Positions 8,404-51,455 of a stretch of 55,164 nt of DNA are shown here, in pieces. Within the stretch, counting starts at the first letter, position 1, and each line of letters opens with the position of its first letter. The position numbers were made by a program, and so were the translations under genes. The notes beneath the pieces are model-generated. The model was not told the DNA's origin and searched no databases. It saw nothing but the letters and a program-made list of their open reading frames with translations. This stretch comes from Candidatus Kerfeldbacteria bacterium (GTDB lineage: Bacteria > Patescibacteriota > Patescibacteriia > JACPL01): positions 1-55,164 of the forward strand of contig JACPGL010000028.1 in the NCBI GenBank assembly GCA_016182525.1, read 5' to 3'.

Positions 8404-9000
8404 CTATTCCCCTGTTGCGCGCTTGGGCTCGATAATACGGTCGATCATGCCGTAGTTTTTTGCTTCTTCGGCATCCATAAAGAAGTCACGATCCGTGTCT
8501 TTTTGGATCTTTTCAAGTGGTTGGCCGGTATGGGTGACCAAGATACGGTTCAAGCGGTCGCGGATTTTCAGGATATGTTCCGCTTGGATTTTGATGTCCG
8601 TGGCTTGGCCTTGCGCGCCGCCCATGACTTGGTGAATCATGACCTCAGCATTCGGTAACGCGAATCGCTTGCCGTGCGCTCCGGCAGCCAAAAGTGTGGC
8701 GCCCATCGACGCGGCGATTCCAATGCAAATAGTCGACACATCGGCTTTCACGTACTGCATCGTGTCGTAAATCGCGAGTCCTGCCGTGACCGATCCGCCA
8801 GGCGTGTTGACATAGAGCTTAATATCTTGTTTGGAGTTCTGCGAATCCAAGAACAGCATTTGGGCAATGACGATGTTGGCGACCACATCATCAATCGGCT
8901 CGCCAAGAAAAATAATCCGCTCTTTCAAGAGCCGAGAGTAGATATCGTAGACGCGCTCACCGTAGGTTTCGCGCTCAATGACGGTTGGGATAAGGGGCAT
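8404..9000 (-). CDS. clpP: ATP-dependent Clp protease proteolytic subunit
   Basis: [33 protein letters not shown]..., catalytic-region GIAASMGA; ATG at 9000 preferred over the upstream TTG because a consensus promoter ends 6 nt before it. Confidence 0.95.
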
Positions 9001-9006
9001 AGAGGT

Positions 9007-9036
9007 ATTGTACGTGCCAGCATGATGTGCTGTCAA
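9007..9036 (-). promoter_or_regulatory. clpP promoter, TTGACA-18-TACAAT, -10 ends 6 nt before the ATG (leaderless architecture)
   Basis: Minus strand reads gcTTGACAgcacatcatgctggcacgTACAATacctctATG. Confidence 0.6.
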
Positions 9037-9039
9037 GCA

Positions 9040-9085
9040 TGTCCAAAGCTAAGCTTTGGACATGGCAAAAGCTTAGCTTTGGACA
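9040..9085. repeat. 46-bp double-palindrome repeat, copy 2 (upstream flank of clpP, overlaps the stop of the DHH gene)
   Basis: TGTCCAAAGCTAAGCTTTGGACATGGCAAAAGCTTAGCTTTGGACA. Confidence 0.85.
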
Positions 9086-10044
9086 ACGTTGACGGTCCAC
9101 TTGTCTGGCTGCTCTTCAATGACGCCGGCAACCGTGAATCCTGCCGCCTTTTTGTGACCGCCGCCTCCAAACGCGCGGGCGATCTCGGCGACATCCACAT
9201 CATCATGCGTGGTACGTAAACTCCCTTTCACGAGCCCGCCGGCCTGCTCATTCAAAAACAGCACATACCGCACACCGGCAAGTGAATTCAAAAAGTTGGA
9301 GACACCGCTCGCATCTTCTTCTGTTGCCCCGGTTTCCTTAACATCTTTCTCGAAAATGGCTGTGGAAACGCCACCGGTTTCCGGATCAGTACGCAGCCGC
9401 TCGAACGCTCGTCCCCACAACTTCAACATGGGCAGCGTTTGGTTCGCAACCGTCTTTTCGATAATCTTCCGAAAGCGCGCGCCATATCCCAGCAGCTCCG
9501 ATGCAATGTTCATCGCTTGAATCGTTGTGCCTTGATTCGAAAAGTTGCCTGTGTCCGTCAAGATACCGGTCAATAAACAGGTGGCCATATCCGCGCTCCA
9601 CACGACGCGATGATAATCAAGAAATCGAAACACCACATCGGCCGTCGACGCCGCATGCGTATCCACAATGTTCACATCACCAAAAAACTCATTCGTGGAA
9701 TGATGGTCAATGTTCAAAATCTTGATTCGATCGCGCACTGGCAACACCTCATTTTCAATACCAAGATACCGCACATCGCCGCCGTCGAACGTGATCACGA
9801 GATCCGCTCCCTCAAACGCACGGCGATCCGTGGTAAATCGATCAGACCCGGGGAGAAAGCGGTAGCGCTTCGGAATCGGATCAACACAAAAACAGGAATG
9901 GTCTTTGTGACGATTCACGAGCCAATGGCTCATTGCGAGGGTTGAGCCAATGGTATCACCATCCGGCTTGGGATGAGACACAAGGATAATCCGCCTCGCT
10001 TCTTGAATCAATCGATCTGCCTGTTCAAAATCACGTGGTTCCAT
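9073..10044 (-). CDS. DHH/DHHA1 phosphoesterase, NrnA-like (nanoRNase/pAp phosphatase)
   Basis: SHPKPDGDTIGS, ITFDGGD, NIDHHSTNEFFG, C-terminal GGGHKKAAGF; start set at Met30 to avoid overlap with rbfA. Confidence 0.8.
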   Translation of the reverse strand: MEPRDFEQADRLIQEARRIILVSHPKPDGDTIGSTLAMSHWLVNRHKDHSCFCVDPIPKRYRFLPGSDRFTTDRRAFEGADLVITFDGGDVRYLGIENEVLPVRDRIKILNIDHHSTNEFFGDVNIVDTHAASTADVVFRFLDYHRVVWSADMATCLLTGILTDTGNFSNQGTTIQAMNIASELLGYGARFRKIIEKTVANQTLPMLKLWGRAFERLRTDPETGGVSTAIFEKDVKETGATEEDASGVSNFLNSLAGVRYVLFLNEQAGGLVKGSLRTTHDDVDVAEIARAFGGGGHKKAAGFTVAGVIEEQPDKWTVNVVQS

Positions 10045-10057
10045 AAAACAACCGAGC

Positions 10058-49462: not shown

Positions 49463-49909
49463 CTAGTGGTAGTAGCAGATATACGTCGCTGATCCGTTCG
49501 GGCAGGCGATGATGATCTGCTGACCGCGTGGGACGACAACGGGATCGTCCGCAGCGCAGGCCTGCGTGCCATTGATCGTCAGCTCACCCGAGCGCACGCG
49601 GATGCACTCCTCCTCGTGCGCCGTACCGAAGTCGTACGGCTCCGGCCGTGGCTGGATGACTCCGACAGTGAGCCGTCGGCCATCCAGATCGTGACAGCCG
49701 AGCGACTGAACTTGGCCGTCAAAGTACATACTGTGCACCACGTCCTTCGGCGCCTCCTTCGGGTGGACGAACGTCACCGGAGCGCAGATGAGTCCCATGG
49801 GTATCTCACCGAGCCCAGTCAGTCCGTCAGTCACGATCACGGATGCTACTACTTCGCCCTCCACAGCTGCGAGCGCAGCGCCACTTTCGAACGTAAACTT
49901 CTCGATCAC
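49463..49909 (-). CDS. ppnP: PpnP-like pyrimidine/purine nucleoside phosphorylase (DUF1255 cupin) with about 55-aa N-terminal extension
   Basis: YFDGQVQSLGCHDLDGRRLTVGVIQPRPEPYDFGTAHEEECIRVRSGELTI...ATYICYY parallels E. coli PpnP/YaiE; GGAGG 6 nt before the ATG. Confidence 0.7.
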   Translation of the reverse strand: MIEKFTFESGAALAAVEGEVVASVIVTDGLTGLGEIPMGLICAPVTFVHPKEAPKDVVHSMYFDGQVQSLGCHDLDGRRLTVGVIQPRPEPYDFGTAHEEECIRVRSGELTINGTQACAADDPVVVPRGQQIIIACPNGSATYICYYH

Positions 49910-50044
49910 CGTCTACCTCCATGCAAATGTAAAAGGCCTGCCTCCCGATAGGATGCAGGATAATCGTTTCACACGGAATGTAAACACATTCTCTACATTA
50001 TTCTCCTACATGCTCATGTATTCGCTAATAATAAATAAAATAAG

Positions 50045-50073
50045 AAAAACAAAAGTTGTAGAGAATCTACAAC
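50045..50073 (-). terminator. Intrinsic terminator after the TrmB-like gene
   Basis: Minus strand GTTGTAGA-ttc-TCTACAAC followed by TTTTGTTTTT. Confidence 0.65.
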
Positions 50074-50103
50074 ATTTATCTTTCTCGTCACTGATTTCGC
50101 GCC

Positions 50104-50901
50104 CTATACCTTTGGATACTCCTTATTCTGTACCTGATTTTTTGCATGCATCCATGCAAACTCAAACATCTTGCGCTGGGTGTCGGCAATAATCGGATCT
50201 TGAATCACGACCGCTCGAAGCTCCCGCGGAATGTTCACGCTGTATTTGTCATCGTAAATCACGATAAATCCCTCGCAGTCGAACTGTTCCCGTGGCACAA
50301 ACCGTGCTTTCATCGGCGCCGCGTCAGGGTCATCTATGTAGCGCTTCTTGATATACGCATGGGCGTCAGGAGTATCAATAAACAAGAACCGCGTCGGCAC
50401 TTGCAATTTTTTCTTGAGCGGAAAATACACCTCGTCAAGATACCGATCAAACACCGAGGCGTAATTTTCGATGCGCGTCCACTCAAGCATTTCACCTTTG
50501 CAGTGCAACACGTCCGTTGAGTAGCTCGTGAGGCCTTCGTATCCTTCGTAGTATAACACTTTTGTCGTGCCTTTTTCTTCTTTGGTGAGCGACTTGAGTT
50601 TGGGGACAAGGAGTTCGAGCTCGGCCATTTGTTTTTTCAACCGCTCTTGCTGTTGGGAGACAATATCCCAGAGTTTCATTGGCGGATACGCAGAAAACTT
50701 TCGCCGCTTGCCGATGCGCTCTTCGCGCATGAAGCCTTTTTTCAAAAGATCCTTGATGATTCCATACGTCGTCACGCGATGCATCTCGGCTTTTTCGGCA
50801 ATCTCTTGCGCCGATGCCGGGCCAACAGTCAGCGCTGCAACATACACCGTTGCTTCGGTTTCGGTGAGACCATACTTTGTGAGCTGTTGCGAGAGTGTCA
50901 T
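50104..50901 (-). CDS. TrmB-family transcriptional regulator
   Basis: YGLTETEATVYVAALTVGPASAQEIAEKAEMHRVTTYGIIKDLLKKGFM; the ATG at 50901 overlaps the ribH stop (ATGA). Confidence 0.8.
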   Translation of the reverse strand: MTLSQQLTKYGLTETEATVYVAALTVGPASAQEIAEKAEMHRVTTYGIIKDLLKKGFMREERIGKRRKFSAYPPMKLWDIVSQQQERLKKQMAELELLVPKLKSLTKEEKGTTKVLYYEGYEGLTSYSTDVLHCKGEMLEWTRIENYASVFDRYLDEVYFPLKKKLQVPTRFLFIDTPDAHAYIKKRYIDDPDAAPMKARFVPREQFDCEGFIVIYDDKYSVNIPRELRAVVIQDPIIADTQRKMFEFAWMHAKNQVQNKEYPKV

Positions 50902-51386
50902 GGTTTTGTAGACAGTTTTCGGCGCCAAGCGATGATTTCGGCAGTTGCGATGGCGGCCTCGATGCCTTTGTTCAAGTTGTCGTCACGGGAGCGTGCGGCG
51001 AGTTGCTTCACGCTCGTAACAGGAAGCACCTCCACAATGATCGGCACGTTTTCTGTAAGCATCACCTGACCCAATCCGCGGATGCACTCGTCGCGGATCA
51101 TTTCAAAGTGATCGGTCTCGCCTTTCAGAATCGCGCCAAAACAAACGAGCGCATCGTATGGCGCGCCACGTTTGGCGTTTCGAATCAGCGTTTGCGCAGC
51201 AAGTGGCAATTCGAGCGAGCCGGGCAAGAGATAGTGTTCGGGTTGCGGGCAATTCGCTTTGCGGAGAACCGCGACGCACTTCTCGACCATTCTATCGACG
51301 TACTCGCGGTACCACTTGGCCTGCAAAATCGCGACGCGCGCGCCAGGGATTTTGGGCAGAGATTCGGGCGTGTGTTCAATGTGCAT
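50898..51386 (-). CDS. ribH: 6,7-dimethyl-8-ribityllumazine synthase (RibH2-like)
   Basis: ARVAILQAKWYREYVDRM..., PGSLELPLAA, ILKGETDHFEMI; start at Met13 supported by TATACT 6 nt upstream. Confidence 0.85.
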   Translation of the reverse strand: MHIEHTPESLPKIPGARVAILQAKWYREYVDRMVEKCVAVLRKANCPQPEHYLLPGSLELPLAAQTLIRNAKRGAPYDALVCFGAILKGETDHFEMIRDECIRGLGQVMLTENVPIIVEVLPVTSVKQLAARSRDDNLNKGIEAAIATAEIIAWRRKLSTKP

Positions 51387-51455
51387 AGGTGGAGTATAGC
51401 GCAGCTGGTTCGGCGAGATCAAGACGCGTCAAGGAAAGTGTACGAATGCCAACAG

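Follow-up and report, generated by a model that had tools for sequence, protein, structure and literature searches.

Start-codon-adjacent promoters point to leaderless mRNAs in a Parcubacterium

Results

In the window, i.e., the whole stretch of 55,164 nucleotides analyzed here, exactly 6 nt separate a TAnnnT hexamer from the start codon (gap 6) at nine of the 54 curated gene starts, whereas the hexamer stands at this distance from 24 of all 1853 ATG trinucleotides (1.3%; binomial P = 3e-8). Taken as a whole, this arrangement is very probably best explained by leaderless or near-leaderless initiation from sigma-70-type promoters located at the start codons. The first-pass annotation had quoted ten such promoter/start arrangements, and all ten were found with the coordinates, hexamers, and spacings it gave, as were its quoted Shine-Dalgarno (SD) sequences; Pfam backs its gene identities except one, a presumed wHTH gene, named hyp283 hereafter, which has no Pfam match.

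Each of the nine gap-6 genes opens its transcription unit: either 69 nt or more separate it from the gene upstream, or the neighboring gene is divergent. The clpP promoter (8998..9036, minus strand; TTGACA-18-TACAAT-6-ATG(9000)), which scores 11/12 in the promoter scan, directly follows the strong palindromic hairpin repeat closing the upstream operon, and the start fits both the NCBI call and the conserved N-terminus M-x-LIPTVIE of ClpP homologues. That of tsaD (21940..21977, plus strand; TTGACG-17-TATGCT-6-ATG(21975)) leads to the universal TsaD N-terminus M-x-ILGIETSCDET, again in agreement with NCBI. It stands back to back, across a 77-nt spacer, with the promoter of the mntA-like nucleotidyltransferase gene (21895..21912, minus strand; extended -10 TGaTACAAT-6-ATG(21897)), whose start is ambiguous because a Logan call uses an alternative ATG at 21876, NCBI retaining 21897. 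The starts of ribBA (23724..23761, plus strand; TTGTTT-17-TATAGT-6-ATG(23759), with a weak -35), tsaE (34355..34392, plus strand; TTTACA-17-TAAGCT-6-ATG(34390)), and ribH (51384..51422, minus strand; TTGATC-18-TATACT-6-ATG(51386)) are all identical in NCBI, and the Pfam models DHBP_synthase, TsaE, and DMRL_synthase begin at residues 6, 7, and 16, respectively. No FMN riboswitch was found at ribBA. The ATG of tsaE is the first start of its ORF, an in-frame TAA lying within the -10, and ribH is the first gene of an operon with trmB, the two overlapping by 4 nt.

The start of hyp283 (43332..43369, plus strand; TTTACT-17-TGgTAGGAT-6-ATG(43367)) is also identical in the NCBI calls. A ninth case, found in addition to those quoted, is an 84-aa ORF (45061..45098, minus strand; TTGAAA-17-TGcTAAAAT-6-ATG(45063)), the promoter of which scores 10/12 with its TG extension. 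This ORF overlaps abiEii-2 by 8 nt and is a probable antitoxin gene; the NCBI calls include both the 84-aa product and AbiEii-2 from ATG 44816. The weakest case is pilB (32833..32850, minus strand; extended -10 TGaTATACT-6-GTG(32835)), since neither caller on record uses this GTG (NCBI, TTG 32781; Logan, GTG 32796) and the N-terminal 50 residues carry no Pfam domain.

Four further promoters lie at gaps 8 to 10, two of which (at 10044 and 42521) are additions to the earlier list. That of infB (12195..12235, minus strand; TTGACT-17-TAGGAT-9-ATG(12197)) predicts a 5' UTR of about 3 nt. A DHH/DHHA1 (nrnA-like) gene has an internal promoter within the 3' end of rbfA (10042..10083, minus strand; TTGACA-17-TAAGCT-10-ATG(10044)), and the gene for a Peptidase_C39_2 protein has one at 42519..42558 (minus strand; TTGCCT-17-TATGCT-8-ATG(42521)); NCBI places both starts identically. 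For the DHH paralogue (34224..34265, minus strand; TTGACG-17-TATAGT-10-ATG(34226), the NCBI start), there is a competing arrangement in which TTGACA-17-TAGGAT (34351-34323) is followed by GAGGAGG and then by ATG 34286, the start of a 399-aa product in one Logan call.

The excess is independent of gene annotation. When every ATG within the first 30 codons of the 52 long ORFs is considered, gap 6 collects seven TAnnnT hexamers, whereas gaps 11 to 30 average 0.85 (P = 3e-5), and the peak is not a stop-codon artifact, as it persists when hexamers beginning with a stop codon are left out (TA[CT]nnT: 5 versus 0.5). Furthermore, of the promoter-like sites with a score of 10/12 or more in the promoter scans, nearly all are located 6 to 26 nt upstream of a gene start. 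About 23% of the ~39 first genes have their -10 at gap 6 and about 33% at gaps 6 to 10, and any genome-wide fraction derived from these values is an extrapolation from the roughly 54 genes of the window.

The same signal is present in relatives. Among 38 out-of-sample Parcubacteria loci (380 ORFs), a set defined by a GC content of at least 0.42, gap 6 is occupied 28 times versus 10.45 (P = 5e-6), 11 versus 1.7 when a -35 match of at least 4/6 is required (P = 2e-6), and P reaches 4e-11 with gaps 6 to 10 pooled. Low-GC loci are also enriched at gap 6 (P = 4e-4), and 26 Firmicutes loci show no such enrichment (P = 0.9). In these relatives, a TTGA that was not selected for appears 17 nt upstream of the -10. 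The peak belongs to ATG starts (30 versus ~10.5); no gap-6 peak is seen at GTG or TTG starts. Mycobacteria, by contrast, use GTG leaderless starts too.

At individual loci, conservation takes the form of promoter footprints. Two related loci, L166 and L167, reproduce the tsaD promoter of the window in both hexamers, in the length of the spacer (17 nt), and in the distance to the ATG (6 nt); the spacer sequence varies among the three genomes, the TsaD proteins share 60 to 62% identity, and the upstream flanks are unrelated. The closest relative, L082, has kept the infB promoter (TTGACT-17-TAGTAT-10-ATG) and that of the DHH/DHHA1 gene at 10044 (TTGACG-17-TAATAT-10-ATG), the latter being found as TTGACG-17-TAGGCT-8-ATG in L084. 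Constraint on the gap-6 arrangement does not extend to every locus, since in L082 the same clpP promoter stands ~45 nt from the ATG, i.e., the gene is leadered, and in L166 ribBA is operon internal, 9 nt after another gene. ClpP itself is 75 to 84% identical to its counterparts in Buchanan-, Kerfeld-, and Uhrbacteria.

Strong SD sequences (dG of -7 or below) precede 9 of the 54 starts (~17%), and the anti-SD is probably retained because this minority keeps them. Clear SDs are found at hup, DAGK, hyp208, and ppnp. The hup gene, encoding HU, is an operon-internal, SD-led example (5258..5274, minus strand; AAGGAGGTG-5-ATG) whose SD, also present in L082, gives a duplex dG of -12.9 kcal/mol with an assumed anti-SD, and hyp208 is an SD-led first gene (40296..40314, plus strand; GGAGGG-5-ATG(40312); duplex dG -10.0 kcal/mol). 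The statement that none of the promoter-adjacent starts has an SD was slightly overstated, as SD-like matches occur within or adjoining the -10 at hyp283 (dG -5.5) and infB (-6.4), and one abuts the start codon of pilB (-4.5). Many operon-internal genes (valS, ymdB, abiEii, trmB-3) lack a strong SD, and some 10 other genes with a recognizable upstream promoter, among them FG-GAP, hsp20, hicB, argS, the D12 methyltransferase gene, and Na_Ca_ex, have leaders of 13 to 28 nt, mostly devoid of an SD. Most genes, which make up the largest class, lack both an SD and a -10 close to the start, and they would therefore rely on SD-independent leadered initiation or on translational coupling. The earlier proposal of two initiation modes is thus too simple, and that of leaderless first genes is well supported for a substantial set, given the exact-position enrichment, its replication, its ATG specificity, the -35 elements, and the footprints, with only ~23% of first genes at gap 6. 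One of the genes it had cited as SD led, at 19513, is doubtful, the ORF being missing from the NCBI calls.

Discussion

In the mechanism that we propose, RNA polymerase would use ordinary sigma-70-type promoters (TTGACA, 17 to 18 nt, TAnnnT, often with a TG extension) and would as a rule give very short 5' UTRs. For roughly one transcription unit in four, the -10 would be separated from the start codon by exactly 6 nt, so that transcription would begin at the A of the ATG and the mRNA would be leaderless, its 5'-terminal AUG being loaded by the ribosome without an SD interaction. The four units with gaps of 8 to 10 (infB, the two DHH genes, and the C39 peptidase gene) would carry leaders of about 1 to 4 nt and be functionally near-leaderless. 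Both the actual +1 position and the mode of ribosome loading are what we infer from this architecture.

Could the promoters be real and the true start codons lie elsewhere, the mRNAs being leadered and the 6-nt spacing arising from the choice of starts, including that made by GeneMarkS-2+? The discordant calls for pilB in two pipelines and the alternative starts given by one pipeline each for mntA and the DHH paralogue speak for this, and the agreement with NCBI starts is not independent evidence because GeneMarkS-2+, which the reference list of PMC7441243 places in the NCBI pipeline, models exactly this signal (PMC6028130). Nevertheless, the next in-frame start of clpP, tsaD, tsaE, ribBA, or ribH would remove part of a conserved N-terminus or Pfam domain, as for the N-terminus with which TsaD homologues begin, starts further upstream would place the promoter in coding sequence, and the gap profile is annotation independent since it weighs all candidate ATGs and gaps equally. 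We therefore regard misplaced starts as an unlikely general explanation.

Still less probable is that the hexamer is a translation signal on leadered mRNAs transcribed from further upstream, whether as an element that is unstructured or binds S1 or as a ribosome-binding site of the non-SD type known from GeneMarkS-2 group B genomes. Most genes of the window do lack an SD, and no more than 48% of Parcubacteria genomes show an anti-SD motif (PMC9297842), so that the lineage must have some non-SD signal. However, group B motifs precede all genes, operon-internal ones included (PMC6028130), whereas the hexamer is seen here at first genes only; moreover, it has the -10 skeleton TAnnnT, is paired with a TTGACA-like element at 17 to 18 nt or with a TG extension, and at tsaD the fixed hexamers and the variable spacer of constant length draw a classic promoter footprint.

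Finally, it is scarcely credible that eight coincidences with a loose motif were simply collected by a reader from 55 kb: although ATG counts after every TAnnnT of the window, taken unconditioned, show only a weak bump at gap 6 (24 versus ~17) and promoter scans overall give just 1.3 to 2 times the shuffled expectation, gap 6 stands alone once long-ORF starts are considered, recurs in independent related genomes and not in Firmicutes, comes with unselected -35 elements, and is accompanied by the tsaD, infB, and DHH footprints, so that chance is refuted as far as sequence statistics (window profiles, stop-codon control, unselected -35) allow.

Leaderless initiation from start-codon promoters is well known in other bacteria, and judged on motif and spacing, the pattern of the window matches the leaderless signature already known for group C, here in a Parcubacterium, i.e., an uncultured, ultra-small bacterium of the CPR (Patescibacteria). 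In group C, as defined with GeneMarkS-2 (Lomsadze et al. 2018), a TANNNT Pribnow box lies 6 to 8 nt before operon-first starts, SD sites are used on other genes, and 25 to 50% of transcripts are predicted to be leaderless (PMC6028130); in the window, ~23 to 33% of units are predicted as leaderless or near-leaderless. Group C was described chiefly from two phyla, with 90% of Actinobacteria and 97% of Deinococcus-Thermus assigned to it (PMC6028130), and under genetic code 11 is said to be almost always high-GC, unlike the window genome (Parcubacteria, ~51% GC), which also differs by the low SD use of its remaining genes and by a large third class. The leaderless transcriptomes of Mycobacterium tuberculosis, Mycobacterium smegmatis, and Deinococcus deserti, established by dRNA-seq (Cortes 2013, Shell 2015, and de Groot 2014, as cited in PMC6028130), share the TANNNT -10, the +1 at the first base of the start codon, and the inclusion of housekeeping genes; their starts were mapped experimentally, whereas those of the window are predicted. 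In Mycoplasma and other low-GC members of group C that use genetic code 4, 30 to 60% of transcripts are predicted to be leaderless (MetaGeneMark-2 preprint, 10.1101/2022.07.25.500264); these are likewise small, reduced genomes of host-dependent bacteria with a promoter motif adjoining the start, but from another phylum and with another code, TGA appearing to be a stop in the window because table-11 ORFs give full-length Pfam matches and NCBI-identical products.

We found no published description of leaderless starts for Parcubacteria or the CPR. Besides the frequent lack of the CCTCCT anti-SD motif mentioned above, Parcubacteria have a shortened bS1 and often no bS21 (Tsurumaki et al. 2022, PMC9297842), so that SD-independent initiation would be expected in this lineage; leaderless mRNAs do not occur in the text of that paper, and the window genome differs in still having clear SDs on some genes. 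As a separate observation, a small ORF of 19 codons at 19700 may also be leaderless. Leaderless small ORFs reportedly occur in M. tuberculosis, M. smegmatis, and D. deserti as well.

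Start-proximal promoters at first genes

A check against the sequence recovered every promoter and start arrangement quoted in the first-pass annotation, each with its spacing and at its coordinate, and the set of genes in which exactly 6 nt separate the end of a -10 hexamer (TAnnnT) from the start codon (gap 6) now stands at nine: clpP (9000), mntA (21897), tsaD (21975), ribBA (23759), pilB (32835), tsaE (34390), hyp283 (43367), orf84 (45063) and ribH (51386). The ninth exact case is orf84, an NCBI-called gene of 84 aa that overlaps abiEii-2 by 8 nt (TTGAAA-17-TGcTAAAAT-6-ATG). 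Besides infB (12197, gap 9) and the DHH paralogue (34226, gap 10), the near-leaderless arrangement was also found at the DHH/DHHA1 gene (ATG 10044, TTGACA-17-TAAGCT-10-ATG) and at a C39-like peptidase gene (ATG 42521, TTGCCT-17-TATGCT-8-ATG). Pfam matches support the identities given to ClpP, TsaD, TsaE, RibH, RibBA, the MntA-type nucleotidyltransferase, PilB, IF2 and DHH, but hyp283, formerly labelled a wHTH gene, has no Pfam match.

The proposed enrichment of TAnnnT at -12 to -7 is borne out in the window by two counts. In an annotation-free profile, where TAnnnT was counted at gaps 0-30 before all ATGs within the first 30 codons of long non-overlapping ORFs, gap 6 holds seven occurrences where gaps 11-30 average 0.85 (P = 3e-5), and a shoulder follows at gaps 9-10. 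Among curated starts, 9 of 54 carry the hexamer at gap 6, compared with 24 of all 1853 ATG trinucleotides (1.3%, P = 3e-8). Each of the nine gap-6 genes heads its unit, either behind a spacer of 69 nt or more or next to a divergent gene, and in this one 55-kb window they account for roughly 23% of first genes (9 of 39), a share that reaches 13 of 40 (33%) for gaps 6-10. Since gap 6 puts the hexamer in frame, a TAnnnT match could also arise from an upstream in-frame stop codon (TAA or TAG at -12); this artefact is excluded, the peak being retained for TA[CT]nnT (5 vs 0.5). A count of ATGs at each distance past every TAnnnT in the window gave a background that swamps the signal, and profiles conditioned on ORF starts were used instead.

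The sites resemble sigma-70 promoters: six of the nine have a -35 match of at least 4/6 at 17-18 nt, with a TG extension in addition at hyp283, while mntA and pilB have the TG extension alone and ribBA a -35 match of only 3/6. Sites scoring at least 10/12 in a promoter scan of the window lie nearly all 6-26 nt upstream of a gene start, which argues that the sigma-70 consensus is meaningful here and that 5' UTRs are generally short. The start codon is ATG in eight of the nine gap-6 cases, in line with a preference for a 5'-terminal AUG. A -10 hexamer at -12 to -7 would place +1 on the A of the ATG. The pattern is a known signature of leaderless transcription, and the predicted leaderless status of these first genes is supported in its core by the gap-6 enrichment, its confinement to first genes and its recurrence in relatives, although the picture it gives of initiation is incomplete.

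Conservation in related Parcubacteria

A ClpP-based scan of metagenome contigs and look-ups of the closest homologues yielded 82 usable related Parcubacteria loci (~0.86 Mb). One further locus, L083 (ENA ERZ25039527 contig_11862), was left out of the statistics; its rny, ymdB and DHH genes are each broken into two or three ORFs, which suggests a frameshift-rich assembly. The lineage-specific FG-GAP protein (1723 aa) found no relatives when used to scan metagenomes, and a TsaD scan of a genome collection, with identities of at most 41% among the matches listed, served for control loci and a rough taxon.

In the 38 loci with a GC content of at least 0.42 (380 ORFs), gap 6 occurs 28 times against 10.45 (P = 5e-6), and 11 times against 1.7 when a -35 match of at least 4/6 is required (P = 2e-6); pooling gaps 6-10 gives P = 4e-11. 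The AT-rich related loci have a gap-6 excess too (P = 4e-4), and no gap-6 enrichment was found in 26 Firmicutes loci taken from the TsaD scan as controls (P = 0.9). The excess in relatives concerns ATG (30 vs 10.5), with none for GTG (2) or TTG (5), and a 'TTGA' stands 17 nt before the -10 of the gap-6 matches, which were selected without regard to the -35.

At the level of single genes, the tsaD promoter (TTGACG-17-TATGCT-6-ATG) is kept in the window and in two related loci, L166 and L167, with spacer and discriminator varying in sequence at fixed length and unrelated sequence further upstream. Reading this conserved block as a coding N-terminal extension was rejected: conservation ends just upstream of the -35, where a 1-nt indel would break the frame, the spacer changes are not codon-wise at fixed length, and TsaD proteins begin M-x-ILGIETSCDET. 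The infB promoter (TTGACT-17-TAG[G/T]AT) stands at gap 9 in the window and 10 in the closest relative, L082, and that of the DHH gene (TTGAC[A/G]-17-TAnnnT) at gap 10 in both the window and L082 and at gap 8 in L084. The same promoter is found at clpP in L082, where it lies ~45 nt before the ATG, without a Shine-Dalgarno sequence (SD); a spacing of 6 nt between a -10 and the clpP ATG occurs in only a few more distant Parcubacteria (e.g. L113 and L122), and ribBA is operon-internal in L166. Across these relatives, the start-proximal arrangement is not fixed at every gene.

A strong palindromic hairpin closes the infB-rbfA-DHH unit directly before clpP, and a 60-nt repeat (88% identical) lies on either side of clpP (8338-8397 and 9026-9085). 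Each copy holds two palindrome units GTCCAAAGCT-W-AGCTTTGGAC, of which the window has four against none expected, and the upstream copy overlaps the clpP -35. The repeats may act as an operator, but L082 holds a different hairpin at the same position, which favours a terminator role, and we consider them most likely to be terminators.

Shine-Dalgarno usage and initiation classes

SD strength was taken as the duplex energy to an assumed canonical anti-SD, strong meaning a dG of -7 or lower. Strong SDs precede 9 of 54 starts in the window, against 4.2% of control ATGs: hup, DAGK, hyp178, DUF2103, hyp208, hyp326, ppnp, an S26 peptidase (start chosen, unconfirmed) and a doubtful ORF at 19513. Genes in the window that are not leaderless are mostly without an SD. 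A recognisable promoter precedes about ten further genes, among them FG-GAP, hsp20, hicB, argS, the D12 methyltransferase and Na_Ca_ex, and their predicted 13-28 nt leaders mostly lack an SD, as do many operon-internal genes such as valS, ymdB, abiEii and trmB-3. The earlier proposal of two initiation modes is too simple, because SDs serve only a minority of genes and the majority have neither an SD nor a start-proximal promoter; on the signals considered here, there are at least three situations, with predicted leaderless or near-leaderless starts in ~23-33% of units, SD-led starts in ~17-25% of genes and neither in the majority. This majority is consistent with the anti-SD motif being detectable in just 48% of Parcubacteria, in which bS1 is short and bS21 often absent, as reported in a study that makes no mention of leaderless mRNAs (PMC9297842).

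Start codons and annotation

Pfam models begin at residues 6-7 of RibBA, TsaE and MntA, 14-16 of ClpP and RibH and 27 of TsaD, so the proposed starts are compatible with the domain boundaries. The ClpP N-terminus, MPLIPTVIE, is matched by M-x-LIPTVIE in Parcubacteria homologues, and that of TsaD is MMILGIETSCDET. NCBI starts are identical to the proposed ones for clpP, tsaD, tsaE, hyp283, ribH, ribBA, mntA and the DHH paralogue. The match carries no independent weight, because GeneMarkS-2+, part of NCBI's pipeline (reference list of PMC7441243), models the same signal (PMC6028130). The GTG at 32835 proposed for pilB is uncertain as a start, since it is in no gene call on record (NCBI, TTG 32781; Logan, GTG 32796), and the mntA start is ambiguous too, one Logan call placing it at ATG 21876.

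Back to back with the tsaE promoter, the minus strand at 34284-34351 carries a second DHH-paralogue promoter, TTGACA-17-TAGGAT, followed by GAGGAGG and ATG 34286, from which a 399-aa SD-led form would be made beside a 379-aa near-leaderless form. The two forms are split between gene callers, with ATG 34286 in one Logan call and ATG 34226 in NCBI. Over-extended N-termini recur in related genomes, where annotated ClpP proteins run to 207-230 aa and a TsaD to 429 aa (proteins P0002, P0006, P0058, P0086 and P0131), and the called ClpP start in L082 (10001-10048) is an ATG overlapping the -10 hexamer. Callers without a leaderless model would over-extend or misplace starts in such genomes, as a consequence of SD-poor, leaderless starts.

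Relation to known leaderless systems

Leaderless mRNA is a well-described initiation mode; the mechanism is known, and the new element is the lineage. In GeneMarkS-2, group C genomes have a Pribnow box 6-8 nt before first-gene starts, SDs on other genes and 25-50% of transcripts leaderless, and comprise 1028 of 4769 bacteria, mainly Actinobacteria and Deinococcus-Thermus (PMC6028130); a MetaGeneMark-2 preprint adds low-GC Mycoplasma (10.1101/2022.07.25.500264). The window shares with group C the localised TANNNT and its restriction to first genes, but whereas the remaining genes of group C are SD-led, strong SDs occur here at only 9 of 54 starts. No paper joining 'leaderless' and Parcubacteria was found (a TM7x transcription start site paper, PMID 35975994, lay outside the search), and in the texts examined for CPR, Patescibacteria or Saccharibacteria, which hold no such claim, the word comes up only among the cited references or in a comment on YchF with no bearing on the question. 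A Parcubacterium at 51% GC with this signal across related loci appears undescribed in the literature searched.

Whether leaderless and near-leaderless initiation is a major, lineage-wide expression mode across Parcubacteria, and perhaps more widely in CPR, is in our judgement evenly balanced. If true, it would go with reduced ribosomes (short bS1, bS21 and uL1 often absent, and the anti-SD undetected in about half of Parcubacteria genomes) and help explain how translation starts with little or no SD pairing. We know of no explanation so far for start-codon selection in CPR or Parcubacteria, and the promoter-at-start architecture, seen in the window and statistically in 82 related loci, offers a concrete, testable part of the answer. 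For expression design, a promoter fused straight to the ATG might be usable in the few cultivable CPR bacteria.

Lineage, gene content and small transcript candidates

The window has a GC content of ~51%, two tRNAs and about 54 credible protein genes. An Rfam scan at gathering threshold found no rRNA or riboswitch in it, and, together with an E-value search of two gene-free stretches, no known RNA other than the two tRNAs. Its genes encode RNase Y, YmdB and HU, a bactofilin, a FG-GAP surface protein of 1723 aa, PilB, three TrmB-type regulators, two AbiEii modules, HicB and MntA-like and Phd-like proteins, a content that looks CPR-like. ClpP is 75-84% identical to proteins labelled Candidatus Buchananbacteria, Kerfeldbacteria, Uhrbacteria, Falkowbacteria or 'Patescibacteria group', and TsaD has only two close relatives (60-62% identity, both in raw-read assemblies; next best ~45%), which together point to a sparsely sampled Parcubacteria lineage. 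The proteins of the window carry an NCBI source label, which marks it as a contig of an NCBI metagenome-assembled genome. An exact ClpP look-up on contigs gave no match, and infB is recorded solely on a 4-kb Logan contig; near-identical contigs occur in the samples SRR12113422 and SRR32573209.

On the minus strand at 19588-19735, a strong promoter (TTGACA-17-TGaTACACT) stands exactly 6 nt from ATG 19700, which opens an ORF of only 19 codons (MMTRNTSWWNESSLLSMGC) with two adjacent Trp codons. Next come a long hairpin and an intrinsic terminator, GCCGCCCCACCGGGCGG and then a run of Ts. Folding of the 113-nt transcript gives z = -5.1, and the sole match of the region in an Rfam search is at chance level; the locus may specify a small RNA, or else a leader peptide, itself leaderless, together with an attenuator. 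From this terminator to a second strong one (19211-19183), the minus strand has ~400 nt of GC-rich sequence (19183-19590), with ORFs of 190 aa (TTG 19680) and 91 aa (ATG 19513) of odd Arg/Pro/Gly-rich composition. The SD GAGGAGGG reported for the latter is indeed upstream of ATG 19513, but the gene itself is doubtful given this composition and its absence from NCBI calls; the stretch may specify a non-coding RNA, and the 19513 gene might then not exist. The 717-nt gene-free stretch after valS (29006-29724) may encode an RNA of no known family; it has no Rfam match and contains a 10/12 promoter (29498-29470, minus strand, TTGACA-17-TATGCT) facing a 139-aa Arg/Gly/Ser-rich ORF absent from NCBI calls.

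Modules of defence or toxin-antitoxin type are dense in the window (2495-4791, 21610-21897, 23079-23574, 25046-26337, 44205-45063 and 49047-49301). They include what is probably a restriction-modification system (an HTH_3 controller, a 279-aa gene of no assigned function and a D12 methyltransferase), a MntA-like nucleotidyltransferase without an obvious HepT partner, a HicB-like gene, two AbiEii modules and a Phd-like antitoxin, and several of them break synteny with L166, where tsaD, ribBA and valS stand closer. A 452-nt interval holding a 77-aa plus-strand ORF (6071-6522) separates rny from ymdB, which are adjacent in L082 at a distance of 2 nt. To our knowledge, riboflavin synthesis genes are unusual among CPR genomes. 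The Rfam scan found no FMN riboswitch upstream of ribBA (23575-23758) or ribH (51387-51455), and these genes, if leaderless, would have no space for one; ribH and the gene of a TrmB-family regulator share 4 nt.
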